64,000 nucleotides of DNA from positions 22,026-86,025 of the forward strand of contig CAZTKG010000005.1 of the NCBI GenBank assembly GCA_964613815.1, in the 5' to 3' direction. The translations under genes and the position numbers were made by a program. The notes under the pieces are model-generated. The model was not told the DNA's origin. It was given only the letters and a program-made list of their open reading frames with translations, and searched no databases. Shown one piece after another: positions 3,884 to 37,287 of this stretch (position 1 is the stretch's first letter; every line of letters begins with the position of its first letter). This DNA is from an uncultured Gammaproteobacteria bacterium. GTDB taxonomy: Bacteria; Patescibacteriota; Patescibacteriia; UBA9934.

Positions 3884-3959
3884 GGGCGCGTAGCTCAGCG
3901 GTTAGAGCGCGGAGCTTATATCTCCGTGGTCGATGGTTCGAATCCATCCGCGCCCACCA
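3884..3959 (+). tRNA. tRNA-Ile with apparent UAU anticodon (tRNA-Ile2 type)
   Basis: GGGCGCGTAGCTCAGCGGTTAGAGCGCGGAGCTTATATCTCCGTGGTCGATGGTTCGAATCCATCCGCGCCCACCA. The cloverleaf is canonical: AC stem CGGAG/CTCCG, loop CUUAUAU giving anticodon UAU. The body resembles tRNA-Ile(GAU). Confidence 0.75.
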
Positions 3960-9782: not shown

Positions 9783-11177
9783 CTATTGCAGCTCGCAAGA
9801 TCCGTCGTCTCCAGGTATTTTCGGCTCAACCCATGTGCATACCCCACTGTTGTTTATTCCAAATCTACAGAATTGACTATCTTTCTGACAATAATCTCGT
9901 ACATAAAAGTTTCCGGTGCCGTCATCGAACGTCGTGATTTCTGTCTTGTCCCCTCCCATTCGTATGATTATTTTTTCATATGCCTCGCACGGATTATCTT
10001 TACCTGCTGCTGCACGCAGCTGAGCACAGTCCAAATGCGAGCTACTTTCTGGATATACGAATGTTCCGCACATGTCTGACACCAAACTTACTCCGTATTC
10101 CTTTTTTAACAGCTTACATGAGTAAAAGTCATTTTGTACGCCCGTCGTCTCTGGTTGAGCTGGAACCATTCGCGCGCAGTTTGTATTGTTTGCATCTACC
10201 CCCCCAGATGCCTTTCCGTCGTCGTAAATGTCCTCGCATTTTTTGCATGAGTAATCGCCAGCAGCGGATGAGTCATACATGCACACACCCTCGGCACAGT
10301 CGTCCCATATACATTCGTCGCCCTCTTCGACTGATATATCCATTGATTTATATTCATCATCTAAATAATCAAGTCCTCCTTCTGGGATCTTGCTCTTCTC
10401 TCCGCAGCCACCTCTCAATGGATCGAGCCGGACCCCGATATCGCTCAGTGTCTTGCACGTGGAAGCCCCATCGATGAATGCAACTGTTTTGATTTTTGGC
10501 ACCTGCATGTCCTTGAACTTGACGAGGCTTGGGTCTATGAATGCGGCTATTGCGTACGAACATAAAAGTAGAACAATCCCAATGACTGCGTTTATCATTC
10601 GCTCTTTTGCCCTCGTGACTTGAGAGGTGTTTCCGCGTGCAAGTAGGTATTCGACGCCTCCAATCATGAAAATGAGCACGGCAATAAGAGATGCTGCTCC
10701 AATGAGCCATATGTAAAGTCCTTCGATGTATTCACCCACCGACGAAGCATGGGTGAGGTTCCCTATGGGCACGGATAGGTCTATGGGTATGGCTGGATTT
10801 AGGCAATAGCCCTGCCCCTCTTTACAGTATGCAGACTGACCGGCGTATACCGATGATTTCTCTTCTGTCCCGATCGTTCCTGGCACTGGGACGTTCACCA
10901 CGTCTGCCGTGCATTCTGAAGCCGACCAGCACCTCGGATTTTTTGATGGGTCGTTTCCTTTTTCGAAACAACCGACATAGATCGTGCTTGATTCTCGGCA
11001 TAGGTCTCTACAGTCGCTCTCTGCTAACCCTCCCTTTGATACAGCTCCAGTTTTATCTGTACCGCAATAACACTCGCAGGCTTTTTCTGTTTCTTCTGCG
11101 AAGACGGGTTGCGTTATGGATACTGTCGCTAGGAGCATCAGTGCTGCGATGGAAATGATGCGGAAAATTTTTGCCAT
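9783..11177 (-). CDS. Cysteine-rich (~27 Cys) secreted/envelope protein with central VirB2/TrbC-like double-TM hairpin
   Basis: N-terminal signal peptide, a ~140-aa Cys-rich domain, two TM helices separated by ARGNTSQVTRAKERM (with a GG..Y..A pilin-like motif), then a ~250-aa Cys-rich acidic C-terminal domain. Confidence 0.6.
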   Translation of the reverse strand: MAKIFRIISIAALMLLATVSITQPVFAEETEKACECYCGTDKTGAVSKGGLAESDCRDLCRESSTIYVGCFEKGNDPSKNPRCWSASECTADVVNVPVPGTIGTEEKSSVYAGQSAYCKEGQGYCLNPAIPIDLSVPIGNLTHASSVGEYIEGLYIWLIGAASLIAVLIFMIGGVEYLLARGNTSQVTRAKERMINAVIGIVLLLCSYAIAAFIDPSLVKFKDMQVPKIKTVAFIDGASTCKTLSDIGVRLDPLRGGCGEKSKIPEGGLDYLDDEYKSMDISVEEGDECIWDDCAEGVCMYDSSAAGDYSCKKCEDIYDDGKASGGVDANNTNCARMVPAQPETTGVQNDFYSCKLLKKEYGVSLVSDMCGTFVYPESSSHLDCAQLRAAAGKDNPCEAYEKIIIRMGGDKTEITTFDDGTGNFYVRDYCQKDSQFCRFGINNSGVCTWVEPKIPGDDGSCELQ

Positions 11178-11261
11178 ACGGTAATTGGGTGTATTGTATC
11201 ATCTAGAAGCATTGCATTGACTAAAAGGCTGTGAACTGTTAGTCTTTCTGCAGAAAAATCT

Positions 11262-11474
11262 ATGATTATTACTGTTATACAAATCATTCTTGGCGTGCTC
11301 TTTATTGGAGCTGTTTTGATGCAGTCTGGCGGATCTGGACTGGGCGCTGTTTTTGGAGGAGAAGGGGGGAGCTTTCGGACGAAGCGCGGGATTGAAAAGC
11401 AGCTTCATACGACAACTGTCGCGCTTGCGATTATCTTTTTTGGTGTTAGCGCTGCAAACGCTTTCTTTTTCTAA
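11262..11474 (+). CDS. secG: Preprotein translocase subunit SecG
   Basis: 70 aa, two TM helices, motif LMQSGGSGLGAVFGG...SFRTKRG. Confidence 0.8.
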   Translation: MIITVIQIILGVLFIGAVLMQSGGSGLGAVFGGEGGSFRTKRGIEKQLHTTTVALAIIFFGVSAANAFFF

Positions 11475-11480
11475 TCAACA

Positions 11481-13310
11481 ATGTCTTCGGGCTTTAAAAA
11501 GTCTCGGTTAAAAAGCTCTCGTAAGCGATCTGGCTTGCGTGGGTTTTTTCGATTTAAAAAGGATCGTGGGAAGGATCTTGCCATGAAGCAAGTCTTGAGC
11601 GCGAGGGAGACTCGACTTATCCCTAGCTTTCAACAGCTTATGCACCTTCCTCGCATTTTGAATCCGTTTGAGCGGTTCCTTGCGAGCGTTGCCGTGCTTT
11701 TGATTTTGACGTCTAGTTCCCTGCTTCTCGTCCACCAACTACGAGACTCACGCGCCACCATTCCTGCGATTGGCGGTAGCTATACAGAAGGTCTGATTGG
11801 GTCTCCCCAGCTTATTAATCCCCTGTACGCCATGACGAGTGACGTGGATACGGATTTGGCTCGGCTTATTTATAGTGGGCTCATGCGGTATGACGCAGAA
11901 GATGGACTTGTCCCTGATCTTGCTGATTGGTTTGAAATTTCGGAGGATGGACTGGAATATACGTTTGGCATTCGAGAGAACGCGACCTGGCATGATGGAC
12001 GCCCTGTCATCGCGAGCGACGTGATTTATACGATTACTTCCATTCAAAACTCTCAGTATCGCAGTCCGCTTGGGGTTAGTTTTTCTGGAGTTCAAGTGGA
12101 GCAGATCGATGAGCGTACGGTGAAGCTGATTTTGGAGGAGCCGTTTGGACCGTTTCTCTCACTTTTAACTGTCGGGATCTTGCCGAGTCACTTGTGGAGC
12201 AACGTGAGTCCTTTAAATGCTGTTTTGACGGAGCTTAATATTAAACCTGTCGGTAGTGGACCGTACCGATTTGAGAAGTTGGAAAAAGATACGAATGGGA
12301 CGGTGCGGACCTATACTCTCATGCGAAATCCGGACTTTTATTTTGAAGGACCTTATATAGAAGAGCTTACGTTTAAGTTTTATCATGATAGCTTTTCTGC
12401 TGCTGAAGGGCTTCGGAATAAGAATGTGGAAGGGGTTAGTTATTTGCCGCATGAGCAAATTGTTGAGCTCGCGAATGATAGCGACGTGCGCGTGCTACTC
12501 CCTACTCTTCCACAGTACACCTCTGTGTTCTTTCATCAGGAGAACTCGGATATTTTGGATGATTCAGATGTTCGTGAAGCGCTTGCCATTGCGGTTGATA
12601 AGGAACGCTTGGTTGAGGAGGTTTTTTCTGGATACGCGAGTGCGATTGAGTCGTTTGTGTTACCGGGGATGGATGGGTATACCTCTGATTATCGACCTTA
12701 CGGCTTTGATCGTGAACGCGCGATTGAGATCTTGGAGGACGATGGGTGGGATTTGGAGGATGGTGCTGAGGTTCGCAGCAAGGGGGATGAAACCTTGTCT
12801 ATTGAGCTTGCCGCATTGAACGCACCTGATCTTGCAGCTACCGCCGAGGCCTTGAAGGCTCAGTGGGCGGAGATTGGGGTGCAGGTGGATTTACGATTAG
12901 TTGATAATGCTGAGTTTGAAGATGTGCTCTTGGGAGAGCGGGATTATGAGATGATTTTGTCTGGGGAGTTGTATGGGATTGATGCGGACCCCTACCCTTT
13001 TTGGCATTCCTCGCAGACTTCGGCACCGGGACTTAACCTTGCGAATTTTTCTAGTCGGACAGCGGACGAATATATTGAGACGGCGCGGAGCACGACGAAT
13101 CCTGAAGTTCGGGCGGAGGCGTTCCAGAATTTGCAGGAGTTGATTAGTGATGATGTTGCGGCGCTGTTCTTGTATCAGCCGATGTATGCGTATCCGACTT
13201 CTAGCCGGGTGCAGAATCAATCCATTGAGCATATCGTGACTCCTGCGGATCGGTTTAGTCGGATTTGGGAGTGGTATGTGAAGACGCGGAGCGTGTATCG
13301 TCAGCCTTGA
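11481..13310 (+). CDS. ABC transporter substrate-binding protein, family 5 (peptide/nickel-type), membrane-anchored
   Basis: 609 aa. The basic N-terminus and TM helix are followed by a long domain with SBP_bac_5-like organisation. The start could be the downstream Met at 11583. Confidence 0.65.
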   Translation: MSSGFKKSRLKSSRKRSGLRGFFRFKKDRGKDLAMKQVLSARETRLIPSFQQLMHLPRILNPFERFLASVAVLLILTSSSLLLVHQLRDSRATIPAIGGSYTEGLIGSPQLINPLYAMTSDVDTDLARLIYSGLMRYDAEDGLVPDLADWFEISEDGLEYTFGIRENATWHDGRPVIASDVIYTITSIQNSQYRSPLGVSFSGVQVEQIDERTVKLILEEPFGPFLSLLTVGILPSHLWSNVSPLNAVLTELNIKPVGSGPYRFEKLEKDTNGTVRTYTLMRNPDFYFEGPYIEELTFKFYHDSFSAAEGLRNKNVEGVSYLPHEQIVELANDSDVRVLLPTLPQYTSVFFHQENSDILDDSDVREALAIAVDKERLVEEVFSGYASAIESFVLPGMDGYTSDYRPYGFDRERAIEILEDDGWDLEDGAEVRSKGDETLSIELAALNAPDLAATAEALKAQWAEIGVQVDLRLVDNAEFEDVLLGERDYEMILSGELYGIDADPYPFWHSSQTSAPGLNLANFSSRTADEYIETARSTTNPEVRAEAFQNLQELISDDVAALFLYQPMYAYPTSSRVQNQSIEHIVTPADRFSRIWEWYVKTRSVYRQP

Positions 13311-21287: not shown

Positions 21288-22403
21288 ATGCGAGTTGCTC
21301 TGATTCATGATCATCTGACGCAGAATGGGGGTGCGGAGCGGGTTTTGGAGGCGTTTCAGGCCATGTGGCCGGAGGCGCCTACTTTTACGCTTTTGTATGA
21401 TTCTCGGACGATGGATGAGACGTTTGGGCACCGGGATATTCGGCCCTCTGTGTTGCAGCGGATGCCGCTTTCGCTTCGGCGGCCTCGGTGGTATTTGCCG
21501 CTGATGCCTGTTGCGACGGAGAACTATGACTTGCGGAATTTTGATGTGATTGTTTCTAGCTCTAGTTCGTTTTCGAAGGGGGTTGTGCCGGGGAGTGATG
21601 CGATTCATGTTTGTTATTGTCACACGCCGACGCGGTATCTTTGGTCAGATACGCATAGCTACGTAAAGGACTTGCGGGCGCCGAAGATACTGAAGCGGGC
21701 GCTTCCTCCGCTTTTGAGTCGGCTTCGGGTTTGGGATCATAATGCAGCGCAGCGCGTTGATAACTTTATTGCGAATTCGGAGACGGTGCGGCGGCGGATT
21801 ACGAAGTATTATCAGCGGGAAAGTGATGTGATTCATCCGCCGGTTGATATTGATCAATTTCATCTTTCGCATAAGCCTAAAGAATATTACTTGATTGGGG
21901 GACGGCTGGTTTCTTATAAGCGATATGACTTGGTGATTGAGGCTTTTAATAAACTTCGACTGCCTTTGAAGGTGTTTGGGAGTGGGCCTGAGCAGATGCG
22001 GCTTCGGGCGATGGCTGGGTCGAATGTGCAGTTTTTGGGACGGGTCTCGAATGAGGAACGCGCTCGACTTTTTGCGGATGCGATTGCGTTTTTGAATCCT
22101 CAAGAGGAGGACTTTGGGATTACGCCGGTGGAATCGATGGCTGCCGGGCGGCCGGTGATTGCTTATCGGCGCGGAGGCGCCACGGAGACCGTGGTTGATA
22201 GTGTGAGTGGAATGCTTTTTGAGGAGCAGTCTTGGGAGGAGATTGCGGCTACGGTCTTACAGATGCAGAAGATGACGTTTGATCCGGAGCGGATTCGGGC
22301 GCATGCGGAGCAGTTTTCGCTGCAGAATTTTCATGAGAAGATGCGGAATTATGTTTCTGGGGCTTGGCAGGAGCATCAGCGGAAGGTCCTTGGGGAGATT
22401 TGA
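21288..22403 (+). CDS. Glycosyltransferase family 4
   Basis: GT-B fold with the Glycos_transf_1-like C-terminal domain (EDFGITPVESMAAGRPVIAY). Confidence 0.8.
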   Translation: MRVALIHDHLTQNGGAERVLEAFQAMWPEAPTFTLLYDSRTMDETFGHRDIRPSVLQRMPLSLRRPRWYLPLMPVATENYDLRNFDVIVSSSSSFSKGVVPGSDAIHVCYCHTPTRYLWSDTHSYVKDLRAPKILKRALPPLLSRLRVWDHNAAQRVDNFIANSETVRRRITKYYQRESDVIHPPVDIDQFHLSHKPKEYYLIGGRLVSYKRYDLVIEAFNKLRLPLKVFGSGPEQMRLRAMAGSNVQFLGRVSNEERARLFADAIAFLNPQEEDFGITPVESMAAGRPVIAYRRGGATETVVDSVSGMLFEEQSWEEIAATVLQMQKMTFDPERIRAHAEQFSLQNFHEKMRNYVSGAWQEHQRKVLGEI

Positions 22404-22406
22404 TGT

Positions 22407-23474
22407 ATGCGGATCGCTATTGATGTTCGGCATTTGACGCATCCGAATCCTTCCGGCGTTGGGAGATATACGATTCATTTGGTGGAGGAATTGATTGCTG
22501 CGTATCCGCAAGATACGTGGATTTTGTTTTGTGCAGGAGGTCGGAAGACTCGGGATCGACTTCCCTGTTTTGATCATCGACGTGCTGTGATTGTCCCTGT
22601 GCCAATCATGAATCGGATCCTGTATGGCGTATTGAGGTCTGGTTTTAATGTTGCGCTTGAGGATTTTTTGCCGATTCAGCCGGATGCTTGGTTGTTTCCG
22701 GACTTGAATGTTGTGCGGACTCGGCTTCCCTACTGTTTGACCGTGCATGATGCTGCGACTTCGATTATTCCTTCGTATTTTCCTCGGAAATCGCTTGCGA
22801 AGTTTCGGAGTGCGGGGTATCGGGATTTAGTTTGTGGTGCCGATAAGGTTTTGGCGGTTTCTGAGAGCACGGCGGTTGATGTGGGAGATCTATTTGGGGT
22901 GGAGCGGGAACGGATTGTTGTTGCTCCGCCGATTGTTCGTGTGGGCGATCGACGCGTTTTTGATCGCGGTAATAATTATATTCTGTCGCTTGGGACGCTT
23001 GAGCCTCGGAAGAATGTTGATGGGTTGATTGAGGCCTATGGGCTCTGGCGGGATCGCGGTGGGGATGCTCGGCTTGTGATTGCAGGGGGTGATGGGTGGA
23101 AGATGGGAGCTATTCGCAGAGCACTTGCGGCGTCTGTTTATCGGGATGATATTGAGCTTGTTGGGTTTGTTTCTGAGGAAGATAAGGATGTGCTGATATC
23201 TGGCGCTCGGTGCCTTGTGTTTGCGAGCTTTTATGAGGGGTTTGGTATGCCGGTTTTGGAGGCTTTGATGCGCGGGGTCCCGGTGATAACAGGTGCGCAT
23301 AGCTCTCTGTGTGAGCAATTTGGTGATCAGGCTGTTTTCGTCGATTCGTTTACTGTTTCTGATGTTTTGATGGCGCTAGATATCACCATGAGTACACAAT
23401 TTACCCACAGGCAAAAAGATGTGGATCAAAAATCTGTTCATGCGACGTATTTAGCCCTAAAATCTGTGCTATAA
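22407..23474 (+). CDS. Glycosyltransferase family 4
   Basis: Retaining GT4-type C-terminal motif (FYEGFGMPVLEALMRGVPVI). Confidence 0.8.
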   Translation: MRIAIDVRHLTHPNPSGVGRYTIHLVEELIAAYPQDTWILFCAGGRKTRDRLPCFDHRRAVIVPVPIMNRILYGVLRSGFNVALEDFLPIQPDAWLFPDLNVVRTRLPYCLTVHDAATSIIPSYFPRKSLAKFRSAGYRDLVCGADKVLAVSESTAVDVGDLFGVERERIVVAPPIVRVGDRRVFDRGNNYILSLGTLEPRKNVDGLIEAYGLWRDRGGDARLVIAGGDGWKMGAIRRALAASVYRDDIELVGFVSEEDKDVLISGARCLVFASFYEGFGMPVLEALMRGVPVITGAHSSLCEQFGDQAVFVDSFTVSDVLMALDITMSTQFTHRQKDVDQKSVHATYLALKSVL

Positions 23475-23481
23475 TTTAGGC

Positions 23482-24618
23482 ATGCGTATTGGAATTGATG
23501 CCAGGTTTTATGGCCCACGTGTTGGAGGTGGCGGCATTGGAAGATATGTCGAAGAACTTGTTACGCATTTACAGCTCATTGATACGAAAAATACGTACGT
23601 TCTGTTTTTGAAAAAAGAGAATTTTCATGAGTGCGTCATTCGAAATCCCCTTTTTTCTAAGCAGCTTCTGGATGTTCACTGGTATGGACTTCGTGAGCAG
23701 CGAGAGGTTCCGCGCGCGGTTCGCGATGCTCGTCTGGACTTTGTCCATTATCCGCACTGGAATGTTCCGCTCTTCAGCCGCGTTCCGTTTATTGTCACGA
23801 TTCATGACTTGATCCTGCTTGAGGACAGGCATTCGGCTCGCGTGAGCAGCAAAAGCCCTATTTTGCACGGATTCAAATATGCTGGGTTTCGGACTGTCTT
23901 GGAGCGTGCCGTACATAAAAGCCGACATATTCTCACCGTTTCTGCGTACAGTAAAGAATCTATCGTGCGACACTTTCGTGTTCCTCGGAACAAGATCACC
24001 ACCATTCCTAACGGCGTTATTACTCGCGTTTCTGATCGCGATATCAGTCTTTCAAAACTTGGCGTGTACGATCCGTACTTCCTGTACGTAGGCAATGCTT
24101 ACCCGCATAAAAATCTTGAGATGATGATGCATGCATTTGCGCGGTTTTCCGAGCAAAATGATCATGTTCAACTTGTCATCGCCGGACGTAGAGATGTGTT
24201 TTCTCGCCAACTTGAAGCCGAAGCTCGTGATATTGGACTTCGCAAGGGAGCTGTTCGGTTCTTGGACCTTCCCTCTGATGACGAGATCTCTACGCTTTAC
24301 CAACATGCAAAGCTGTTCGTCTTCCCTTCTCGCATCGAAGGGTTTGGCATCCCTCCACTCGAGGCGATGGCGCACGGGACTCTTGTTGCTGCCGCTCGCG
24401 CCGCAAGCTTACCCGAGGTCTTGCGCGAATGCGCTCTGTATTTTGACCCTCATGATGTTGAAGGACTTGCAGAAATCATGCAACGCTCGCTCAGTAGCTC
24501 GCGCTTATTTGCAAAGAAAATCGAAGATGGCAAGCGCCTGAGTGCGTCCTACCGATGGTCTGATGCAGCTCGAAAGACCCTTGATGTGTATCAACGATTC
24601 CCTATTTTAAAACGTTAG
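23482..24618 (+). CDS. Glycosyltransferase family 4
   Basis: C-terminal motif EGFGIPPLEAMAHGTLV. Confidence 0.8.
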   Translation: MRIGIDARFYGPRVGGGGIGRYVEELVTHLQLIDTKNTYVLFLKKENFHECVIRNPLFSKQLLDVHWYGLREQREVPRAVRDARLDFVHYPHWNVPLFSRVPFIVTIHDLILLEDRHSARVSSKSPILHGFKYAGFRTVLERAVHKSRHILTVSAYSKESIVRHFRVPRNKITTIPNGVITRVSDRDISLSKLGVYDPYFLYVGNAYPHKNLEMMMHAFARFSEQNDHVQLVIAGRRDVFSRQLEAEARDIGLRKGAVRFLDLPSDDEISTLYQHAKLFVFPSRIEGFGIPPLEAMAHGTLVAAARAASLPEVLRECALYFDPHDVEGLAEIMQRSLSSSRLFAKKIEDGKRLSASYRWSDAARKTLDVYQRFPILKR

Positions 24619-24623
24619 ACCCC

Positions 24624-27149
24624 ATGGCTCGAAAGGAGAACATCTCTATCTCTTTGAACGGCGCTGATGAGCGTGCGGATTTTGATACTGCGCTACCGGT
24701 TTCTCTTGCCTCCAAAACCGGAGAAGCTCTTGAAAAAAAGATTGTCCCACGGACCTCTGTCGAGCCTGAACTTTCTCCGTATGTCATCCACCTTTCGCAC
24801 GATGAAGAAATTGGAGGTCTCAATCGTGCCCGCGCCCTTCTTGACGAGCTCGATCTTCCAGAAGATTTTGATGAAGTCTCGTTGATCGAAGAAGACCCGC
24901 TTCTTGTTACCCGAGCCGATCTGGCCTCGCAGCTTCGAGAACCCGATGTGCACCTCCGATCTATTGAGCCAGCTACTGCCAAGTCTTTGGATGATTTTGA
25001 CTTAGACGTCCCTCAGTTTGCTCCCCATGAATGGGACTCTGAAGAGATCCATCTCTCTCTTGCCGCGGACTCCCTGCACGACGAAAGCCCCTTAGAACCC
25101 ACCGAGACGCTCCATGAAGAGCGCGCTCCTCGACGTAGATGGGTACGATTTCGATTTGGAGAAGCTAAACATCGAGCGGTTGCGGCCTTTACTATTTTAT
25201 CCTTTTCTCTTGTCGCGCCTCTTCATGCGATGCAAGGACTTGTGAAGGTCAATGATGCTCCAGCTCAGGTTATGGAAACCAGCAGCTTGGCTATTGATAA
25301 TTTCCTGCGCGGCGCTCATGCGCTTGAAGATGATCGATTCGCTGTTGCGAGTGCAGATTTTGATCGCGCTAGCGAAGCGTTTGCAGGCGCCGATGAGGAG
25401 CTTAATGAATTACGTGGCGTACTTCTGACTGCGCTTCGTCTGATCCCACAGACAAAGAAGACACATGACTCTGTTCGAGGGCTCTTGGGAGCTGGTCAGA
25501 ATCTCTCACTTGCTGCAGCGAACATGTCTGAAGCTGGCAACTCCATTCTTTCTGAAGAATCTACTGACCTGGTGACGAAACTGCATTTACTCGATGCCTA
25601 TGTAAGCTCTTCCCTACCGCATGTGCAAGAGGCGGAGATTTCCCTTGCCTCCGTTGACCCAGATGTTATTCCTGATGATCAGCGAGAACAAGTTGCTCTG
25701 CTTTTAGAAAAAACTCCACAGCTTGCTCGAAGTATGGAAGAGTTTCGGGAGTTTTCTGATGCGTTAAAAACTGTTTTAGGTGATGACCGGAAGATGCGTT
25801 ACTTGGTTGCGTTCCAGAATAATGCAGAGATCCGTCCTACTGGGGGTTTTATTGGGAGCTTTGCGGAGATCGATGTTTATGAAGGCGAAATTGTTGGCGT
25901 GACGATTCCTGAGGGCGGCACGTATGATCTTCAAGGTCAGCTATCTGCGTTTGTTGCTGCACCTGAACCTATGCAGCTCATCAATCCTCGATGGGAGTTT
26001 CATGATTCTAATTGGTTTCCTGATTTTCCTACATCTGCCGAAAAACTTCTCTGGTTTTACGAGAAAGCTGGTGGACCTACCGTTGATGGCGTCATTGCGA
26101 TTAACGCGACTTTGATGCCTGAGCTCTTGGGAGTCCTTGGAGAAGTTGAGATGCCAGAATATGGACGCACGATTGATCGTGAGAACTTCTTGTTTGAAAC
26201 GCAGAAGATCGTTGAGCACGAATATGAACAGTATACGGATGCTGATGATGAACGAGAGGAAGATGCTCCTAAGAAATTTATTGGAGACCTTGCACCGAAG
26301 CTACTTGAGCGAATGAAGGAGACCAATTTAGATCAGTCGTTAGCGCTTTTGGAAATTTTGAGCTCGGCGCTTTTGGAAAAAGACACGATGCTTTACTTCC
26401 GCGACAATGCGCTTCAATCCGACATGCAGAAGCTTGGGTGGACCGGTGAAATGAAACAAGCCCCTCAGGATGCGCTAATGATTGTGAATACGAACCTTGG
26501 AGGGAAGAAAACTGACACCGTGATTGATCAAGAGATTGATCTGGACGTTTCTATTTCTGACGACGGCCGAATCGTGAATACGCTTCGGATAACTAAGAAT
26601 CATCGCGGGCTCTCTTCTCATATTTTTGAAGGAGAGAATAACGTTGACTACCTTCGTGTGTATGTTCCTGAGGGGAGCACCCTCTTGCATGCTGAAGGAT
26701 TTGAAATTCCCGATGAGGACCTATTTGATGAGAGTGACTTGATTTTGACGCCTGATGAAGACCTGACGCTGTTGATGCAAAACACTTCTCAGCATGACGA
26801 GAGCGGTACTGATATTTGGGACGAGCAAGGGCGCACTGTTTTTGGAAACTGGATTCAGACGAAGCCTGGCGAAATGGAGACTATTGAATTTGTCTATGAA
26901 CTTCCGTTTACTGTTGAAATGCCGAGTGAAGCCCCTTCCCTCTTAGAGATTGCAAAGGCTCGTGTCGGGCTCCGTCACTTGAGTGAATACAGTCTGTTCA
27001 TCCAGAAGCAACCCGGTGTCTTGGAACGCGAAACGCGTGTACGGCTCCATCTTCCTGAAGGCTCTAATGTCGCCTGGCAGTCTCGCGAAGGAAGCAGCGT
27101 GGACAATGATCGGGATGCGTTCCTTCAGTACATTTTGGAGCATAAATAA
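24624..27149 (+). CDS. Large DUF4012-like protein (841 aa), N-terminal TM anchor, polysaccharide-locus associated
   Basis: Contains FQNNAEIRPTGGFIGSFAEID, which I recall as the DUF4012 hallmark; this is a recollection, not a search result. It sits after three GT genes. Confidence 0.5.
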   Translation: MARKENISISLNGADERADFDTALPVSLASKTGEALEKKIVPRTSVEPELSPYVIHLSHDEEIGGLNRARALLDELDLPEDFDEVSLIEEDPLLVTRADLASQLREPDVHLRSIEPATAKSLDDFDLDVPQFAPHEWDSEEIHLSLAADSLHDESPLEPTETLHEERAPRRRWVRFRFGEAKHRAVAAFTILSFSLVAPLHAMQGLVKVNDAPAQVMETSSLAIDNFLRGAHALEDDRFAVASADFDRASEAFAGADEELNELRGVLLTALRLIPQTKKTHDSVRGLLGAGQNLSLAAANMSEAGNSILSEESTDLVTKLHLLDAYVSSSLPHVQEAEISLASVDPDVIPDDQREQVALLLEKTPQLARSMEEFREFSDALKTVLGDDRKMRYLVAFQNNAEIRPTGGFIGSFAEIDVYEGEIVGVTIPEGGTYDLQGQLSAFVAAPEPMQLINPRWEFHDSNWFPDFPTSAEKLLWFYEKAGGPTVDGVIAINATLMPELLGVLGEVEMPEYGRTIDRENFLFETQKIVEHEYEQYTDADDEREEDAPKKFIGDLAPKLLERMKETNLDQSLALLEILSSALLEKDTMLYFRDNALQSDMQKLGWTGEMKQAPQDALMIVNTNLGGKKTDTVIDQEIDLDVSISDDGRIVNTLRITKNHRGLSSHIFEGENNVDYLRVYVPEGSTLLHAEGFEIPDEDLFDESDLILTPDEDLTLLMQNTSQHDESGTDIWDEQGRTVFGNWIQTKPGEMETIEFVYELPFTVEMPSEAPSLLEIAKARVGLRHLSEYSLFIQKQPGVLERETRVRLHLPEGSNVAWQSREGSSVDNDRDAFLQYILEHK

Positions 27150-27193
27150 ATTGAGACCTTGAATCTTGGTCTCGTAGCATTGTTATTTTTTGT

Positions 27194-29197
27194 ATGGCCA
27201 AACATCATGGTCACAGTAAACATCATAGAGCCGCGAATAAGAAGAAGCGCGCGCATCAAGACGAGGATCACGAAGAGCGTGATGATGATTTTGAAGATGA
27301 CGAAGACGAGGTCACTATTGAAGAAGAAGTTGATGCTGACGAGGTAGATGCTCAGGATGAGGTCGATGATGAGATTGATGCACTTGAGGATGGCGAGGAA
27401 TATACGGTTGAGGAGGAAAAAGTCTTGATGAAAGAGGGTCTTGAGGCTATCTATGGACGCGGGAGAAAGAAGGTAAATTTTTCTCAGCTTGATAAGGTTA
27501 ACCATGGACTCACCGGTGCCTTGAAGACTATTGTTTTTACGCTTGCTGCTGTTGCCATCGCTGCCTGGGGTGGGTTCTTTGTTTATAATAAGTATCTTTT
27601 GAACGTGACAGATGAGATGCTCATCATCGAGATTGAGGCTGATTCGGAAATCGTTAGTGGAGAAGAGACGTCTGTTGTGATCGACTATCGTAATGTCGCC
27701 ACGATCCCCCTTGCCTCTTTGGCGTTTGAGGTTCATCTTCCTGACGGGTTTGAAGTTGTGTCTTTTGACCCTGAGCCTACCGACGCTGAGAATTTGACTT
27801 GGACTATTGGCACTATGACTGCCGGGTCTGATGGCGCTATTCAAATTGAAGGGGTTTGGTATGCTGATACCCCTTCTTCTACGTCGATTCAGGCGCTGGC
27901 AAATTATCGACCCAGTAACTTTAATTCTGATTTTCAGGAGATAGAGACCGTTTCTGTTTCTACACTTTCCAGCGTACTTTCGATGGAGATTGAGGGACCT
28001 GAGGATATCGTTCCTGGTGAGGATGGAGAATATACACTTGCTGTGCGCACCGATAGTGAAGAGAGCGTGCGAGATATCGAGGTTGAGGTTGCGCTTCCTG
28101 AGGGGTTTTATATTGACTCTAGTGACCCTGCACCGCTTGAGGAGGGGGCGGCTCATTGGGGAATTGAGCGTGTGAGCGCAGATCATCCGATTGAGATTTC
28201 TTTTGTCGGATCGTTTGCGAGTGATATTTCTGGGTTCCAGTATTTTGATGCTGATGTTGGTGTTGTGCGTGGGGATGAGGTGTATACGCAGGCTTCTGGT
28301 CAGGGGTTTACCGATGTTTTGACGAGCAATCTTTCGATTCAGCTTGTGGTGAATGGGAGCACGAATGATACGACGCTTGAGGTTGGGGATCGGATTCGGG
28401 TGAGTGTGGCAGTGATGAATACCGGGGAAAGTGCGATTGAGAATCCTTCGCTTTTGGTTGATTTTCAGTCGGATGAACCGATGCCGATTAATTGGGGGGA
28501 TGCGAGTTTGGATGGTGGAGTGATTACGAGTGATGGGATTGTGCTCACGAATGAGGAGACGGAGGCGATTGAGGTTGGTGAGAAGCGGACATGGAATTTA
28601 ACGTTCCCTACGCGGTCAGAGGTTCAGGATGGAGAGGTTGATCGCTTCCCTGTTGTCGCTGTGGTGGAGAATGGGGATGTGCAGGCACGGTCTCAGACGG
28701 TGGAGATTAGTTTTAACACAGAGGCCGATCTGTCTGCAGGAGCTCGGTATTACAATGATGACGGGGCGCCACTTGGGTCTGGGCCGCTTCCGCCTACGGT
28801 TGGCGAGGTGACGACGTATCACGTGTATTGGTCGGTGAAGAATTCACTGCACGATCTTGAGGACGTGCGGGTGAGTGCAGTTTTGCCTGGGGATGTTGAT
28901 TGGGATGAGGGTGCTGTGGCGGATATTGGGGACGTTGCGTTTGATGAGGGGTCTCGGACGGTGACTTGGACCATCTCGGCACTTTCTGAGGAATTGACCA
29001 GTGTTGGGGCGAGTTTTGCGGTGTCTTTGACGCCAGATGAGAGTGATATTGATACGTTTGTGAAGTTGATTTCTGGAAGTAGTTTGCAGGGGACGGATGT
29101 GGTTACGGAGGCGCTTGTGCAGGATACGACGGAAGCGCTGACGACGGAGCTGCCGGATGATGGGTATGTTGAGGATCGGGGGATTGTGGTTGAGTAG
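27194..29197 (+). CDS. Surface protein: His/acidic N-terminus, single TM, then multiple beta-rich repeat domains (CARDB/DUF11-like)
   Basis: 667 aa. The N-terminus MAKHHGHSKHHRAANKKKRAHQDEDHEERDDDFEDDEDE is followed by a TM helix and repeated ~100-aa modules with recurring motifs (LPxGF...PxP, VxxxNTGxS). Confidence 0.55.
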   Translation: MAKHHGHSKHHRAANKKKRAHQDEDHEERDDDFEDDEDEVTIEEEVDADEVDAQDEVDDEIDALEDGEEYTVEEEKVLMKEGLEAIYGRGRKKVNFSQLDKVNHGLTGALKTIVFTLAAVAIAAWGGFFVYNKYLLNVTDEMLIIEIEADSEIVSGEETSVVIDYRNVATIPLASLAFEVHLPDGFEVVSFDPEPTDAENLTWTIGTMTAGSDGAIQIEGVWYADTPSSTSIQALANYRPSNFNSDFQEIETVSVSTLSSVLSMEIEGPEDIVPGEDGEYTLAVRTDSEESVRDIEVEVALPEGFYIDSSDPAPLEEGAAHWGIERVSADHPIEISFVGSFASDISGFQYFDADVGVVRGDEVYTQASGQGFTDVLTSNLSIQLVVNGSTNDTTLEVGDRIRVSVAVMNTGESAIENPSLLVDFQSDEPMPINWGDASLDGGVITSDGIVLTNEETEAIEVGEKRTWNLTFPTRSEVQDGEVDRFPVVAVVENGDVQARSQTVEISFNTEADLSAGARYYNDDGAPLGSGPLPPTVGEVTTYHVYWSVKNSLHDLEDVRVSAVLPGDVDWDEGAVADIGDVAFDEGSRTVTWTISALSEELTSVGASFAVSLTPDESDIDTFVKLISGSSLQGTDVVTEALVQDTTEALTTELPDDGYVEDRGIVVE

Positions 29198-33572: not shown

Positions 33573-34400
33573 TTATTCTACAATGACTTTTAGGATTTCG
33601 TCTACGGTTGGCGCTTTTCCTTGCTTTGATAGGATGCCCCAGCACCTTCCGCCTCCGAAGGTGAATCCTCCGAATTGTTCGTGGAGTTTTGATGCTTGAT
33701 TTGTGTTTTGCACGTACGCTTTTTGATTTCCCTGCGTGATGATGGAGACTGGGATCTTCTCGTGCGCCTCATGGATGAGGTAGGATAGCGCGTCTCTGAT
33801 GCTGATGTCTGGTTGGTCTGAACGGAGGATGAGGATGCCATTTGCATCTTTTTTTGATTGCCAGACCCTCTGTGCCTCTGTCTCTTCTTGATCACAGATC
33901 TCGCCCCTCACTTCCCTTCTTAGGGACCTGTAGTGGAGGATGATTTCTTTTTCTTTTTGCGTGGAGAAACCTTCTTGCTTTAGCTCTCCCAGGAACCCCC
34001 TGTCCATTGCCGCGATTCCTTTTATGATGTCTGGATCGAATCCGGCGGTTTTGATCTCTTCTTCTCTGATTTGGAAAACATTCAGGAATTGCTCGAGGGA
34101 GCTCTCTGGCTTCATTCGGCTTATGTCTTCGTATTCGTGATGGTCGATAATGTGGAGTGTGTAGCCGGCGGTTTTGATTTCTTCCTCGATGCTTGGGCCT
34201 GGCATTTCCACGATAGCGACCTCTTTTGTTTCTGAGTCTGCGCTCTTGATGCGAGAGATGATGTCGGGCTCGTTTTCTAGCCTGGCTCCGTGAGGCTGGG
34301 ATGAGACGATTGTTTTGATATTGAATGCCTCAGCGAGCCTGATGATGGTGAGGGATTCTTCGTCGTTTTTTGGGCAGACGAGGATGATGTTGCTATTCAT
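33573..34400 (-). CDS. Hypothetical protein with IIDHH motif (possible phosphoesterase); overlaps the ileS stop by 8 bp
   Basis: The listed ORF extends to 34571 inside ileS. The start is likely MNSNIILVC at 34400. Confidence 0.4.
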   Translation of the reverse strand: MNSNIILVCPKNDEESLTIIRLAEAFNIKTIVSSQPHGARLENEPDIISRIKSADSETKEVAIVEMPGPSIEEEIKTAGYTLHIIDHHEYEDISRMKPESSLEQFLNVFQIREEEIKTAGFDPDIIKGIAAMDRGFLGELKQEGFSTQKEKEIILHYRSLRREVRGEICDQEETEAQRVWQSKKDANGILILRSDQPDISIRDALSYLIHEAHEKIPVSIITQGNQKAYVQNTNQASKLHEQFGGFTFGGGRCWGILSKQGKAPTVDEILKVIVE

Positions 34401-37287
34401 ATGAGATACCGATCCAGATTTCTTGCTCGTTTGTTTTGATTGTCTTTTCGATCTTTGCGCTTCCCTTCTCTTGGGTGAGTGACGATGCGAGCGTTGCTGA
34501 CTTGATTGCCCCTGCGTGCTCTGTGAGCATTGTTTTGACGTCTTCTGACTCTGATGTGATGAAGAGATCAACCTTTGTTTGGATGGTTAGATTAGCTTCT
34601 TTGCGGAGCTGGTTGATCTTTCTCGCGACGTCTCTAGCCATGCCTTCTCGTGTGAGCTCTGGTGTTAGTTCTAGGTCTACCTCAACGGCGATGTCGCCTT
34701 TTGCTAGTGACATTGACTTGATGTTTAGCTCGTCTAGGATGACTTGCTTTATTTGCTCGGTCATCCCTCCTGATGGGAGCGTGACCCTTAGGGATGCGAG
34801 CGGTTGTTTGATCGGGATCCCTGCTGACTCGCGGACTTCTAGAGCTCGGCTGACGATGGCTCGAGCCTCTCCCATGGCGTCTAGGATTTCTTGATTGATA
34901 GCGCCTGCTTCTGGCCAGGATTCTAGGTGGACGGATAGGCGTGTGTTTTGATCTTTGAAGTTGCCGTTTACGCCTTGGTAGAGCACCTCTGCCATAAATG
35001 GCATGCACGGGGCTAACATGTGCGCGAAAAGATCCAGCACGGATTTTAGTGTTGCGATTGCCTCCTGCTTATCTTCGCCTTCTGACTTCATTCGGTCTCT
35101 GGATCGGCGGATGTACCAGGTGGAGAGATCTGTTGCGAAGGCTTGAAGTGGGCGCATAGCGGACATGATGTCGTAGCGTTCTAGTGCCTCGGTTTGGGTT
35201 GATAGGGTTTGGTTTGCTCGGGATGTGATCCAGGCGTCTAGTGGGTGCGCGAGTGATGGCGCTCGGTTGTCGCCTGATGCGGCGTGCAGCTTGTAGAAGG
35301 CTAGGACGTTTCTTGTGATTCGGATGAATTTCTTTGCGACTTCTTCTACGCCTTTTTCGCTAAAGCGAAGGTTTTCTGCTTTTACGGCTGGAGATGCCAT
35401 GAGGTAATAGCGCATGGCGTCGGAGCCGTGTTTTTCGATGAGGTTGGTGATGTCTGGGTAGTTTTTGAGGCGCTTGGACATCTTCTTTCCGTCTTCTGCG
35501 AGGACGATGCCGTTCACTGCCACGTTTTTGAAGGCAGGCATGTCGAAGAGGGCGTTTGCGAGGACGTGGAGAGTGTAGAACCATCCGCGGGTTTGGTCTT
35601 GGCCTTCTGCAATGAATTCTGCTGGGAAGCCTCCTTGGAATTTATCTTTGTTTTCGAATGGGTAGTGGAACTGCGCGTATGGCATTGAGCCTGATTCGAA
35701 CCAGCAGTCCAGGACTTCTGGAATGCGGGTGAACTCTTTGCCGTCTTTTTTGATAACGATGTTGTCGACGATGTGCTTGTGGAGATCGTCTACTTTTTGT
35801 CCTGATAGGGTTTCGAGCTCTTCTTGGGAGCCGATGCAGATGATGTCACCGTCTTCTGCGCGCCAGATTGGGAGTGGTGTCCCCCAGTAGCGAGAGCGAG
35901 AGATAGCCCAGTCGCGGGCGCCTTCTAGCCATTTTCCGAAGCGGCCTTCTTTGATGTTTTCTGGGACCCAGTTGATTTCTTTGTTTGTTGCGATGAGACG
36001 GTCTTTGAGGTCTGTGACGCGAACGAACCACGAAGCTGTGGCGTAGTTGAGGAGCGGCGTGTCACAGCGCCAGCAGTGTGGGTAGCTGTGTTCTACTTTT
36101 TCTTTTCTGAAGAGGCGGTCGTTGTGCGCGAGGTATTTTACGATTTCGATGTCTACTGACTGAGTGTCTCCTTTTTGTTTGACTGGCTTGTCTTTTACGT
36201 TGTAGCCAGCCTCCTGTAGAGGATCTGCTACTTCTGGCGCGAAGTGACCGTTGAAGCCTACGTGCATGATAGGGTCTAGACCTTCTGCTTGGGTTAGCTG
36301 AACGTCATCTGCGCCGAAGCCTCCGGCGATGTGGACGATTCCTGTGCCGTCTGATTCTGAGACGAAGTCTGCGCCCTTGATTGTGAAAGCGCCTGCAGTA
36401 TCTTTGTAGAATGGGAACAGTGGCTCGTAGGTTGCGCCGACGAGGTCTGATCCTTTTATGGTTTTGGTGATTTGATGGTCCTTGCCTTCGAAGACGTCTT
36501 TTGCGAGGTCGGCGTGGACGATGTAGTCGGCGCCTTCTGATGAGACGACTGCGTAACTTCCCTGCGGGAGGACGGCTGCGAGCATGTTTCCTGGGAGAGT
36601 CCAGGGAGTTGTGGTCCAGGCTATTAATGCTGCGTTTTGATAATCACCGCTTGTGATTGGGAGTGTGACGTAGACGGAGATGTCTTTGACGTCTTGATAG
36701 CCTTGGGCGACTTCGAAGTTTGAGAGGACGGTTTCGCAGCGGGGGCAGACGTGCATTGGTTTGCGGCCCTCGTAGATAAGTCCTTTGTCCCATAAAGATT
36801 TGAAGACCCACCAGGTGGACTCCATGTATGAGAGGTCCATTGTTTTGTAATCTCTCTCCATGTCGACCCAGCGGCCAAGGCGGCGGACAATGCGCTTCCA
36901 GTCTGCTTCGTAGCGCATGACTTCTGCGTGACAGGCTTCGTTGAATTTGTCGACGCCGAAATTTTCGATCGCGGCTTTTGATCCGAGGTCGTGCTTTTTT
37001 TCTACGATGTTTTCAATTGGGAGACCGTGACAGTCCCAGCCCCATTTTCGTTCGACTCGGTAGCCCTTCATGGTGAAGAAGCGTGGCATGACGTCTTTCA
37101 TGACACCTGGGAGGACGTGACCGTAGTGTGGGAGTCCTGTTGCAAATGGGGGGCCGTCGTAGAAGACGTATGGATTCCCTTCTGGTCTTTGGTTGATGGA
37201 TTTTTGGAAAATCTGATGTTCATCCCAGTATTCTAGGACTTCTAGCTCGTCATCAACGTGTGATTTCTGCTTGGTTTTGTCTGGCAT
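34393..37287 (-). CDS. ileS: Isoleucyl-tRNA synthetase
   Basis: 964 aa with HYGH and KMSKR motifs and the class I editing domain. Confidence 0.95.
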   Translation of the reverse strand: MPDKTKQKSHVDDELEVLEYWDEHQIFQKSINQRPEGNPYVFYDGPPFATGLPHYGHVLPGVMKDVMPRFFTMKGYRVERKWGWDCHGLPIENIVEKKHDLGSKAAIENFGVDKFNEACHAEVMRYEADWKRIVRRLGRWVDMERDYKTMDLSYMESTWWVFKSLWDKGLIYEGRKPMHVCPRCETVLSNFEVAQGYQDVKDISVYVTLPITSGDYQNAALIAWTTTPWTLPGNMLAAVLPQGSYAVVSSEGADYIVHADLAKDVFEGKDHQITKTIKGSDLVGATYEPLFPFYKDTAGAFTIKGADFVSESDGTGIVHIAGGFGADDVQLTQAEGLDPIMHVGFNGHFAPEVADPLQEAGYNVKDKPVKQKGDTQSVDIEIVKYLAHNDRLFRKEKVEHSYPHCWRCDTPLLNYATASWFVRVTDLKDRLIATNKEINWVPENIKEGRFGKWLEGARDWAISRSRYWGTPLPIWRAEDGDIICIGSQEELETLSGQKVDDLHKHIVDNIVIKKDGKEFTRIPEVLDCWFESGSMPYAQFHYPFENKDKFQGGFPAEFIAEGQDQTRGWFYTLHVLANALFDMPAFKNVAVNGIVLAEDGKKMSKRLKNYPDITNLIEKHGSDAMRYYLMASPAVKAENLRFSEKGVEEVAKKFIRITRNVLAFYKLHAASGDNRAPSLAHPLDAWITSRANQTLSTQTEALERYDIMSAMRPLQAFATDLSTWYIRRSRDRMKSEGEDKQEAIATLKSVLDLFAHMLAPCMPFMAEVLYQGVNGNFKDQNTRLSVHLESWPEAGAINQEILDAMGEARAIVSRALEVRESAGIPIKQPLASLRVTLPSGGMTEQIKQVILDELNIKSMSLAKGDIAVEVDLELTPELTREGMARDVARKINQLRKEANLTIQTKVDLFITSESEDVKTMLTEHAGAIKSATLASSLTQEKGSAKIEKTIKTNEQEIWIGISYE

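Follow-up and report, generated by a model that had tools for sequence, protein, structure and literature searches.

In this work we ask what a pilin-type hairpin does in the middle of a large, cysteine-rich exported protein. The protein in question is encoded in a stretch of 64,000 nucleotides (called here the window), which covers positions 22,026 to 86,025 of the forward strand of contig CAZTKG010000005.1 (assembly GCA_964613815.1, deposited as an uncultured Gammaproteobacteria bacterium and placed by GTDB in the Patescibacteriota, UBA9934). As far as the sequences can tell, the hairpin resembles the pilins of type IV secretion systems (T4SS) by homology and not by composition. The known part of the protein is a hairpin of the Pfam family PF18895, and the new part two undescribed, apparently disulfide-rich domains on either side of it, which recur in a large family of Candidatus Uhrbacteria. 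As to function, we see about an even chance that this is a DsbA-folded, membrane-resident and surface-displayed binding or envelope protein which stands on a pilin-type hairpin.

The open reading frame (ORF) begins at the first ATG, seven codons past an upstream in-frame stop, and its translation gives 464 aa with exactly 27 cysteines, the length and approximate number reported in a previous inspection of the letters alone (the sequence-only reading). Cysteine makes up 5.8% of the protein, compared with 0.81% in the other window ORFs of at least 200 aa (binomial P = 4e-15). The N-terminus has the shape of the signal peptide noted in that reading, with K3 and R6 in a basic n-region, a hydrophobic core and a small-residue -3/-1 site before the predicted cleavage at VFA|EE; it was read by eye from the sequence, with no predictor, and the majority residues of the family consensus around the site include Ala at -1 and Pro at -6. 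The N-terminal ectodomain is Cys-rich, as claimed, and holds ten cysteines (34, 36, 38, 56, 60, 70, 83, 89, 118 and 125), but its mature size is about 118 aa and not 140. It is followed by two hydrophobic stretches (TM1, residues ~153-176, and TM2, ~194-214), which are separated by a 17-residue, presumably cytoplasmic loop (177-193) of net charge +3 and left through the exit motif D215-P216; hydropathy, the helices of the structural model and the loop charge all agree with the two membrane helices and short basic loop described earlier. The expected second Cys/Asp-rich domain of about 250 aa measures 248 aa, with 11.3% Asp against a background of 6.2%, a net charge of -18 and 16 cysteines (241, 258, 289, 294, 299, 311, 314, 334, 354, 370, 384, 397, 430, 437, 447 and 461). 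The assignment of the cysteines to two outer domains holds for 26 of the 27, the remaining one, C206, lying inside TM2, where it is not conserved. Since 13 contigs, drawn from several samples, encode the very same amino-acid sequence, the protein is neither an assembly artefact nor the product of a pseudogene. A lipoprotein was ruled out, as no lipobox Cys follows the signal peptide, and so was a sensor or receptor role, the loop being the sole cytoplasmic part.

The likeness of the central region to a conjugative pilin hairpin, first noticed by eye, was borne out by Pfam. Residues 146-213 match positions 4-70 of the 71-position profile PF18895 (T4SS_pilin) with 39.1 bits (E = 8.1e-10), above the gathering threshold of 26.6, and 71 of 73 aligned family members match it at E<=0.01. 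With the pilins of PF18895 the window protein shares the signal peptide, the two hydrophobic helices and the short positive loop, and it comes from the same phylum. Those pilins, however, are small, consist essentially of the hairpin and are encoded within T4SS clusters or close to them, in many cases by tandem and highly variable arrays, whereas the window protein carries ectodomains of 118 aa and 248 aa and is the product of a single-copy gene, which occupies a housekeeping site at a distance from T4SS genes. On the TrbC/VirB2 profile (PF04956) it scores 11.0 bits (E = 0.52), short of the threshold of 27.9; E<0.01 is reached there by 17 of the 73 members (best 6.9e-6), and the relative P0002 scores 21.6 bits. 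This indicates a relationship at the level of the superfamily, not membership. Likewise, the NCBIfam model NF045849 (Mbov_0395 pilin-like) gives 25.2 bits, below its 40-bit cut-off; region 143-214 aligns to its positions 5-76 of 80, but its members are small proteins encoded by Mycoplasma integrative and conjugative elements, and the window protein is not one of them.

A link to a pilin within a T4SS cluster is provided by a 201-aa PF18895 protein of locus L074 (related loci carry L numbers here and proteins P numbers), whose gene sits between a PrgI-family gene and a gene for a VirB4-type ATPase (P-loop_TraG, AAA_10). It aligns with the window hairpin over 76 gap-free residues at 34% identity (pairwise E = 1e-13), and the family hairpin model gives it 66 bits. 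It is on the PF18895 scores across the family and on this alignment that the conclusion of homology is based. The hairpin is also the most conserved region of the family, with a mean identity of 45% compared with 22% in the N-domain and 15% in the C-domain at non-Cys positions. Near-invariant are Y150, Y155, M171, G174, G182, K191, R193, G200 and P216, and within the cytoplasmic loop G182, A190, K191 and R193 are conserved. The L074 gene itself belongs to a compact T4SS-like cluster (L074:5483-12044) that encodes PrgI, an unknown protein, VirB4, a 113-aa membrane protein, a 338-aa protein, the 201-aa pilin and a 510-aa protein. On its 702-kb Patescibacteria contig, a few kb separate this cluster from putative dnaA/dnaN genes, which were recognised by eye in the N-terminal sequences; such a position fits the published occurrence of T4SS genes near the replication origin.

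The two outer domains define a family of their own. An exhaustive HMMER profile search returned 204 cluster representatives (50% identity) at E<=1e-30, most of them aligning from the signal peptide to the C-terminus, and another ~35,000 proteins at E<=1e-3, presumably for the most part through the hairpin alone. Word-indexed searches, with 4, 3 and 5 matches and a sole full-length relative at 33% identity, had given the impression of a rare gene or near-orphan, which the HMMER result overturned. Hence, of the former proposal of an elaborated pilin or adhesin variant, the homology of the hairpin stands, but not the singularity of the elaboration, since there are at least 204 representatives and some are already named 'pilin'; others are labelled 'hypothetical protein' or 'Transmembrane protein' (the name 'pilin' comes from the NCBI pipeline). 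The phyletic check asked for at that time thus revealed a large conserved family, found mostly in Candidatus Uhrbacteria and also in Candidatus Parcubacteria and in 'Patescibacteria group' metagenome-assembled genomes (MAGs). That the sequence-only reading knew of no characterised protein with this combination agrees with our searches, as we found no Pfam family, solved structure or paper describing it. A phage origin was excluded, there being no relatives on viral contigs or in BFVD.

In its modal form the family consists of a signal peptide, a 10-Cys N-domain, one hairpin and a 16-Cys C-domain; in sub-groups the C-domain has 18 or 20 cysteines, and up to 44 when it is expanded. In an alignment of 73 sequences with the window protein as its first row, the ten cysteines of the N-domain never vary, and in the C-domain this holds fully or nearly for 15 out of 16, C461 being aligned less consistently, although the members are only 24-33% identical to the window protein. 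The number of C-domain cysteines is even in 98.4% of full-length members (n=125), as would be expected if all of them were disulfide-bonded. With its signal peptide and 10 + 15 conserved cysteines, the window protein probably belongs among exported disulfide-bonded proteins, and it has all three modules, the invariant Cys pattern and the SecG/UvrA site which we use to delimit the family. Some members depart from the common form. In L029:450-2495, L057:9743-11803 and P0126 the C-domain is duplicated within one chain of 681-693 aa with 41-57 Cys, and L034 and L039 each have two tandem full-length family genes at the same syntenic site. Many of the third-party-annotation MAGs concerned (L014, L016, L017, L020, L023, L024 and others) are titled 'uncultured Gammaproteobacteria bacterium', a name that does not fit their gene content; identity to the Parcubacteria protein P0002 is 41-100% for L014, L016 and L017 and about 31-33% for the other such loci.

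AlphaFold2, supplied with the 73-sequence alignment, modelled the full protein with a mean per-residue confidence (pLDDT) of 90.1 and a global score (pTM) of 0.67. The predicted layout comprises a beta-rich N-domain (pLDDT 93-98), helices 147-179 and 184-214 and a mixed alpha/beta C-domain, preceded by a signal-peptide helix (2-20) beyond which pLDDT is low. The C-domain modelled alone reached pLDDT 89.5 and pTM 0.79. Foldseek comparison of the full model with PDB gave generic helical hairpins only (best E = 1.8) and no solved conjugative pilin, and for the C-domain nothing credible (best E = 3.8, TM <= 0.16). The BFVD structure search yielded no counterpart of the model, the PDB sequence search with the 73-sequence profile had 0 matches at E<=10, and Pfam applied to the 73 members recorded no match in any N- or C-domain. 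Resemblance of a short segment to the CCP1/CCP2 junction of complement factor B (25 residues, E = 0.07) was dismissed as chance, as it disappeared with the 73-sequence profile. We therefore regard the modelled ectodomains, provisionally, as having no known fold.

The site of the gene is conserved as well. One strand carries the genes for Bac_transf, a class-I tRNA synthetase, RNase J, SBP_bac_5 and SecG, and the opposite one the Cys-rich gene followed by uvrA, an arrangement shared by the window and all relatives that were examined. Among 29 family genes in GTDB species genomes, SecG is found nearby in 26 and SBP_bac_5 in 24; UvrA is downstream in 15, the others being limited by contig ends or rearranged. 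A DsbA-like gene (PF13462/PF01323) is located directly upstream on the same strand in 21 of the 29, and those without it are mainly L014-L018, the subclade closest to the window, which itself has none at this site. Between the same genomes the Cys-rich protein is 26-33% identical, UvrA 65-76%, RNase J 66-76%, the tRNA synthetase 52-62%, SecG 47-65% and SBP_bac_5 39-48%. Synteny with SecG, SBP_bac_5, RNase J and UvrA that is held across genomes in which UvrA is only 65-76% identical identifies the gene as a single-copy core gene at a housekeeping site, and not as a mobile or T4SS-locus gene. The neighbourhood check for T4SS ATPases that the sequence-only reading had proposed came out negative, with no VirB4-type ORF within 10 kb of the family gene in ~30 family loci. 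In the window, no T4SS family was present among 30 ORFs scanned with Pfam; the remaining ORFs are too short for a typical VirB4, except for one of 964 aa (34393-37287), which was not Pfam-scanned. Neither a DsbA homolog nor a second hairpin was found in the 64 kb, and a promoter and terminator scan around the gene gave nothing above the shuffled expectation. The SBP_bac_5 protein of the window has a basic, membrane-anchored N-terminus and evolves fast, and no ABC permease or ATPase partner adjoins its gene.

The same type of hairpin occurs on other proteins of these organisms. We recorded 55 further ORFs, mostly in the same genomes, with a comparable hairpin and unrelated N- and C-ectodomains (201-776 aa, 6-29 Cys), often in tandem pairs or triplets; they score 80-114 bits on the family hairpin model, except for the L074 pilin mentioned above. 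The related-locus scan behind these numbers used a query alignment restricted to members sharing MIGGLQY, so its 63 loci are biased toward one hairpin subtype. In Uhrbacteria-type loci all proteins with this subtype have 239-776 aa, and the sole short one, the 201-aa T4SS-cluster pilin of L074, comes from another Patescibacteria lineage. The paralogs resemble the window protein in hairpin subtype, three-part layout, similar size, a moderate richness in Cys and position after a DsbA-like gene; they differ in their ectodomains, in being often tandem and in occupying another conserved site. There, LemA, Peptidase_M48, a ClpB-like ATPase, a PD40-like membrane protein and DsbA are followed by one to three hairpin genes, RadA and a putative RecG (assigned by eye). 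A DsbA gene adjoins 52 of the 55 paralogs and RadA 51. This second site is seen, for example, at L061:7926-12222, and also in L052, L054, L062, L064, L067, L073 and others.

Of the L061 paralogs, one bears a Peptidase_M23 domain, with 33.9 bits against a cut-off of 28.7; the VanY-like domain of another stays, with 22.6 bits, below the cut-off of 25. We found no description in the literature of wall hydrolases anchored on a T4SS-pilin hairpin, nor of large Cys-rich or hydrolase-bearing hairpin proteins. Two weaker cases did not hold: an M15 peptidase at the end of P0004, read by eye, was not supported by Pfam, and the 3D-domain match in P0003 remained below threshold. The Uhrbacteria hairpin is, on the whole, a module bearing many kinds of exported domains, with the Cys-rich protein as its core single-copy member; since it also bears cell-wall hydrolases, it may be a device for display or anchoring in general, and its presence need not mean that a protein is a pilus subunit. 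In five loci a VirB4/PrgI cluster (P-loop_TraG/AAA_10) was detected 6-8 kb downstream of the paralog arrays (see the table); in other paralog loci, such as L073, VirB4 is absent at the syntenic position. Apart from this, P0133, P0134, P0135, L013:2191-4113 and L060:9257-11587 show two to four PF18895 hairpins concatenated in one chain, with P0134 in an array with two more PF18895 genes, and in L062 (5658-7859) a 733-aa protein with Pre-toxin TG (PT-TG) domains, which may be of polymorphic-toxin type, separates the ClpB-like gene from the hairpin array, an insertion seen also in L060.

Table. Coordinates of the gene, its predicted protein parts and its neighbours in the window, and of the T4SS genes near paralog arrays in related loci
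Feature	Position	Strand	Basis or remark
Complete gene of the 464-aa Cys-rich pilin-hairpin protein	9783..11177	-	ORF list and translation; stop codon included
Residues 1-27, Sec-type signal peptide, predicted cleavage after VFA27	11097..11177	-	Sequence reading; cleavage site inferred
Residues 28-145, beta-rich N-terminal ectodomain, 10 invariant Cys (CxCxC ... GYC)	10743..11096	-	Alignment and AlphaFold2
Residues 146-216, T4SS-pilin-type helical hairpin (PF18895)	10530..10742	-	Pfam, AlphaFold2 and conservation
Residues 217-464, acidic C-terminal ectodomain, 16 Cys	9786..10529	-	Alignment and domain-only AlphaFold2
Divergent intergenic region between the gene and secG, 84 bp	11178..11261	.	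A dsbA-like gene lies here in most relatives; absent in this lineage
Divergent neighbours secG (11262-11474) and SBP_bac_5 solute-binding protein gene (11481-13310)	11262..13310	+	Pfam
Downstream neighbour uvrA, 262 bp past the stop codon	6662..9520	-	Pfam
VirB4/PrgI beyond paralog array	L062:17545-19653		
VirB4/PrgI beyond paralog array	L064:18023-21321		
VirB4/PrgI beyond paralog array	L063:9481-10881		
VirB4/PrgI beyond paralog array	L066:15884-16426		
VirB4/PrgI beyond paralog array	L067:19881-21380		

Mature conjugative pilins of the classical kind have a mass of about 7 kDa and, to our knowledge, no appended domains; some of them are cyclised. In the F- and T-pilus structures both termini of the VirB2-type hairpin are on one side. 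With TrbC/VirB2 pilins (Agrobacterium VirB2, RP4 TrbC, F TraA) the window protein shares this hairpin topology, with both termini predicted outside and the loop inside, but neither sequence nor Foldseek comparison matches it to the solved members of that group.

In Patescibacteria, VirB4 is present in ~80% of assemblies, VirB2-like genes (PF18895/PF04956) were counted in 1,948 assemblies, often as variable arrays, and Ca. Southlakia epibionticum has an essential six-gene pilin array in its T4SS locus (PMC12102498, PMC12857230, PMC10633639). PrgB-type adhesins were not detected in the phylum (PMC12102498). VirB5 of Gram-negative T4SS and the PrgB-type adhesins of Gram-positive ones offer a functional analogy only, as we detected no sequence or fold relation to them; the Cys-rich protein would, by this analogy, fill an adhesin role not detected in Patescibacteria T4SS (PMC12102498). 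In the part of the genome survey table that was compared, two family-carrying genomes are VirB4-positive, GCA_001791305.1 (family member L030, paralog L073) is scored VirB4-negative, and Uhrbacteria entries divide into 18 Yes and 18 No (PMC12102498). A 'No' in that part of the table is weak evidence, given that assemblies of near-identical size disagree, and for this reason we did not use it as proof of independence from T4SS.

How the favoured protein would work can be outlined as follows. The signal peptide and the two helices would drive Sec-dependent insertion, with cleavage at A27, so that the N- and C-domains would face outward and the 17-residue basic loop the cytoplasm. The 10 + 16 ectodomain cysteines would then be oxidised to about 5 + 8 disulfides by a DsbA-type oxidoreductase, which is encoded immediately upstream in most relatives and, for this lineage, presumably elsewhere in the genome. 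This would leave, outside the cell, a rigid and acidic head that evolves fast, borne on a strongly conserved hairpin; in Uhrbacteria this hairpin appears to be shared by many ectodomains, including the wall hydrolases of paralogs sometimes situated near T4SS genes. The head of the core single-copy member would most likely bind a ligand on a partner (host) cell or on the own envelope, and the protein would be mainly a membrane-resident displayed one, not a major pilus subunit. Of these steps we infer insertion, oxidation, binding and membrane residence; the composition and rates of head and hairpin and the sharing of the hairpin are measured features to which we add an interpretation. An adhesin or host-attachment role in particular is plausible, considering that the ectodomains are fast-evolving, disulfide-rich and acidic.

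Several observations weigh against this view. The putative binding role is argued from composition, evolutionary rate and location, and in the Pfam, PDB and BFVD searches neither ectodomain resembled a known adhesin, lectin or enzyme. The lineage of the window is without the adjacent DsbA gene and its 64 kb without any DsbA homolog. The VirB4/PrgI clusters beyond five paralog arrays place hairpins of this type close to secretion genes. Finally, the hairpin and its loop (G182, A190, K191, R193) are conserved beyond what a simple anchor needs; this suggests a conserved partner, possibly the pilin-handling machinery of a T4SS, and so speaks for a pilus subunit.

We rank a displayed membrane protein over a decorated pilin, and the latter over an envelope-maintenance factor. 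The decorated pilin is a tentative second choice: the Patescibacteria T4SS would pull the hairpin out of the membrane and build it, as a minor, tip or initiating subunit, into a pilus or stalk of the VirB2 type, and the outer Cys-rich domains would serve as the adhesin, in place of the VirB5 or PrgB-type adhesins that Patescibacteria lack. Homology of the hairpin to PF18895 and to a T4SS-cluster pilin agrees with it, as do the concentration of conservation in hairpin and cytoplasmic loop, the position of both termini on one side (known from established pilus structures and given by the AlphaFold2 topology), which would turn both ectodomains outward, and the paralog arrays 6-8 kb from VirB4/PrgI in L062, L063, L064, L066 and L067. 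It is further in keeping with VirB2-like pilins being widespread and essential in Patescibacteria where no PrgB-type adhesin was detected (PMC12102498, PMC10633639), and with the two VirB4-positive carriers in the survey. On the other hand, no T4SS genes lie near the family gene in the ~30 loci, and the gene is single-copy at a housekeeping site, with no pilin array. If it encoded the major subunit, some 366 aa of ectodomain per 71-aa hairpin would make, by our own estimate, a very thick coat. The hydrolase-bearing paralogs with the same hairpin fit membrane anchoring equally well, and the carrier GCA_001791305.1 is scored VirB4-negative in the survey, a soft 'No', with none at the syntenic site of L073 either. 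A bolder form of this idea, which we consider a long shot, is that the Uhrbacteria T4SS builds a membrane-rooted stalk or filament of VirB2-type subunits with disulfide-locked ectodomains, an 'armed' contact organelle which would grip the host envelope by binding heads (the Cys-rich family) and breach it by peptidoglycan hydrolases (the M23/VanY-like paralogs).

That the ectodomains act on the own wall, S-layer or secretion apparatus instead of on a host appears unlikely to us. Paralogs with Peptidase_M23 and VanY-like domains on the same hairpin, synteny with secG and the SBP_bac_5 gene, and core-gene status over deep divergence would all suit such an envelope-maintenance factor. It is at odds with the lack of catalytic motifs and of any Pfam or fold match in either ectodomain, and the identity at non-Cys positions, only 15-22%, is lower than one usually sees in enzymes or housekeeping scaffolds; besides, synteny alone does not prove coupling, as uvrA and the RNase J gene are equally syntenic. 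Hardly credible, in our judgement, is the explanation that this is a generic two-pass membrane protein whose hydrophobic helices and basic loop would score on pilin profiles anyway. The generic hairpins returned by Foldseek, the empty PDB profile search and the insignificant TrbC score of the window protein are what such a compositional artefact would produce. But PF18895 stands at 39.1 against 26.6 bits and is matched by 71 of 73 members, with other membrane families at E>0.03; conservation extends beyond hydrophobic residues (G174, Q176, G182, K191, R193, N196, G200, D215 and P216), and the partner in the gap-free alignment over 76 residues, with E = 1e-13, is a pilin whose gene stands between those of VirB4 and PrgI.

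Several further features of the window were noted. At 21288-29197 (+) three consecutive glycosyltransferase-like ORFs come ahead of those for a DUF4012 protein (841 aa) and a DUF11/NPCBM_assoc repeat protein (667 aa), and the whole looks like a cluster for a cell-surface polysaccharide or a surface layer; the three ORFs were not Pfam-scanned, and related loci show Glyco_transf_4/Glycos_transf_1 genes. The 23S rRNA gene (54965-58508, -) is interrupted by a group I intron at 55479-55782 (Rfam 72.4 bits), a 5S rRNA gene is located at 54766-54872, and the window has no 16S rRNA gene. It holds also RNase P RNA and housekeeping genes, which, with the rRNA genes, fit a chromosome of Patescibacteria (Candidate Phyla Radiation). 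Two tRNA genes at 50318-50388 and 50477-50548 (+; Rfam 49.3 and 57.2 bits) were reported by ARAGORN as 'tRNA-???' with two-base anticodons, i.e. they have unusual anticodon loops; they adjoin a long-arm tRNA-Leu(CAA) at 50554-50648. A tRNA-Ile with a genomically encoded UAU anticodon is present at 3884-3959 (+), while most bacteria read AUA by a CAU anticodon modified to lysidine.

T4SS genes and VirB2-like pilins are essential in the only genetically tractable Patescibacteria, and surveys which count pilins by PF18895 treat the matches as small subunits. In the large lineage Uhrbacteria (class ABY1) the pilin hairpin regularly forms the middle of proteins of 240-780 aa, with an exported domain on each side. 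One of these proteins comes from a deeply conserved core gene, DsbA-linked in most relatives, and its two domains, both modelled with confidence, have no match in PDB, BFVD or Pfam. Should the hairpin be only an anchor, many 'VirB2 pilins' of Patescibacteria would not be pilus subunits. Should it be polymerised, the T4SS pilus would become a platform on which adhesins and wall-degrading enzymes are displayed, and this would have a direct bearing on how ultra-small episymbionts attach to their hosts and feed on them; an armed organelle, if it existed, would mean a previously unseen use of conjugative-pilin hairpins as a polymerisable display scaffold. Either way, the family gives defined, expressible ectodomains from organisms not yet grown.

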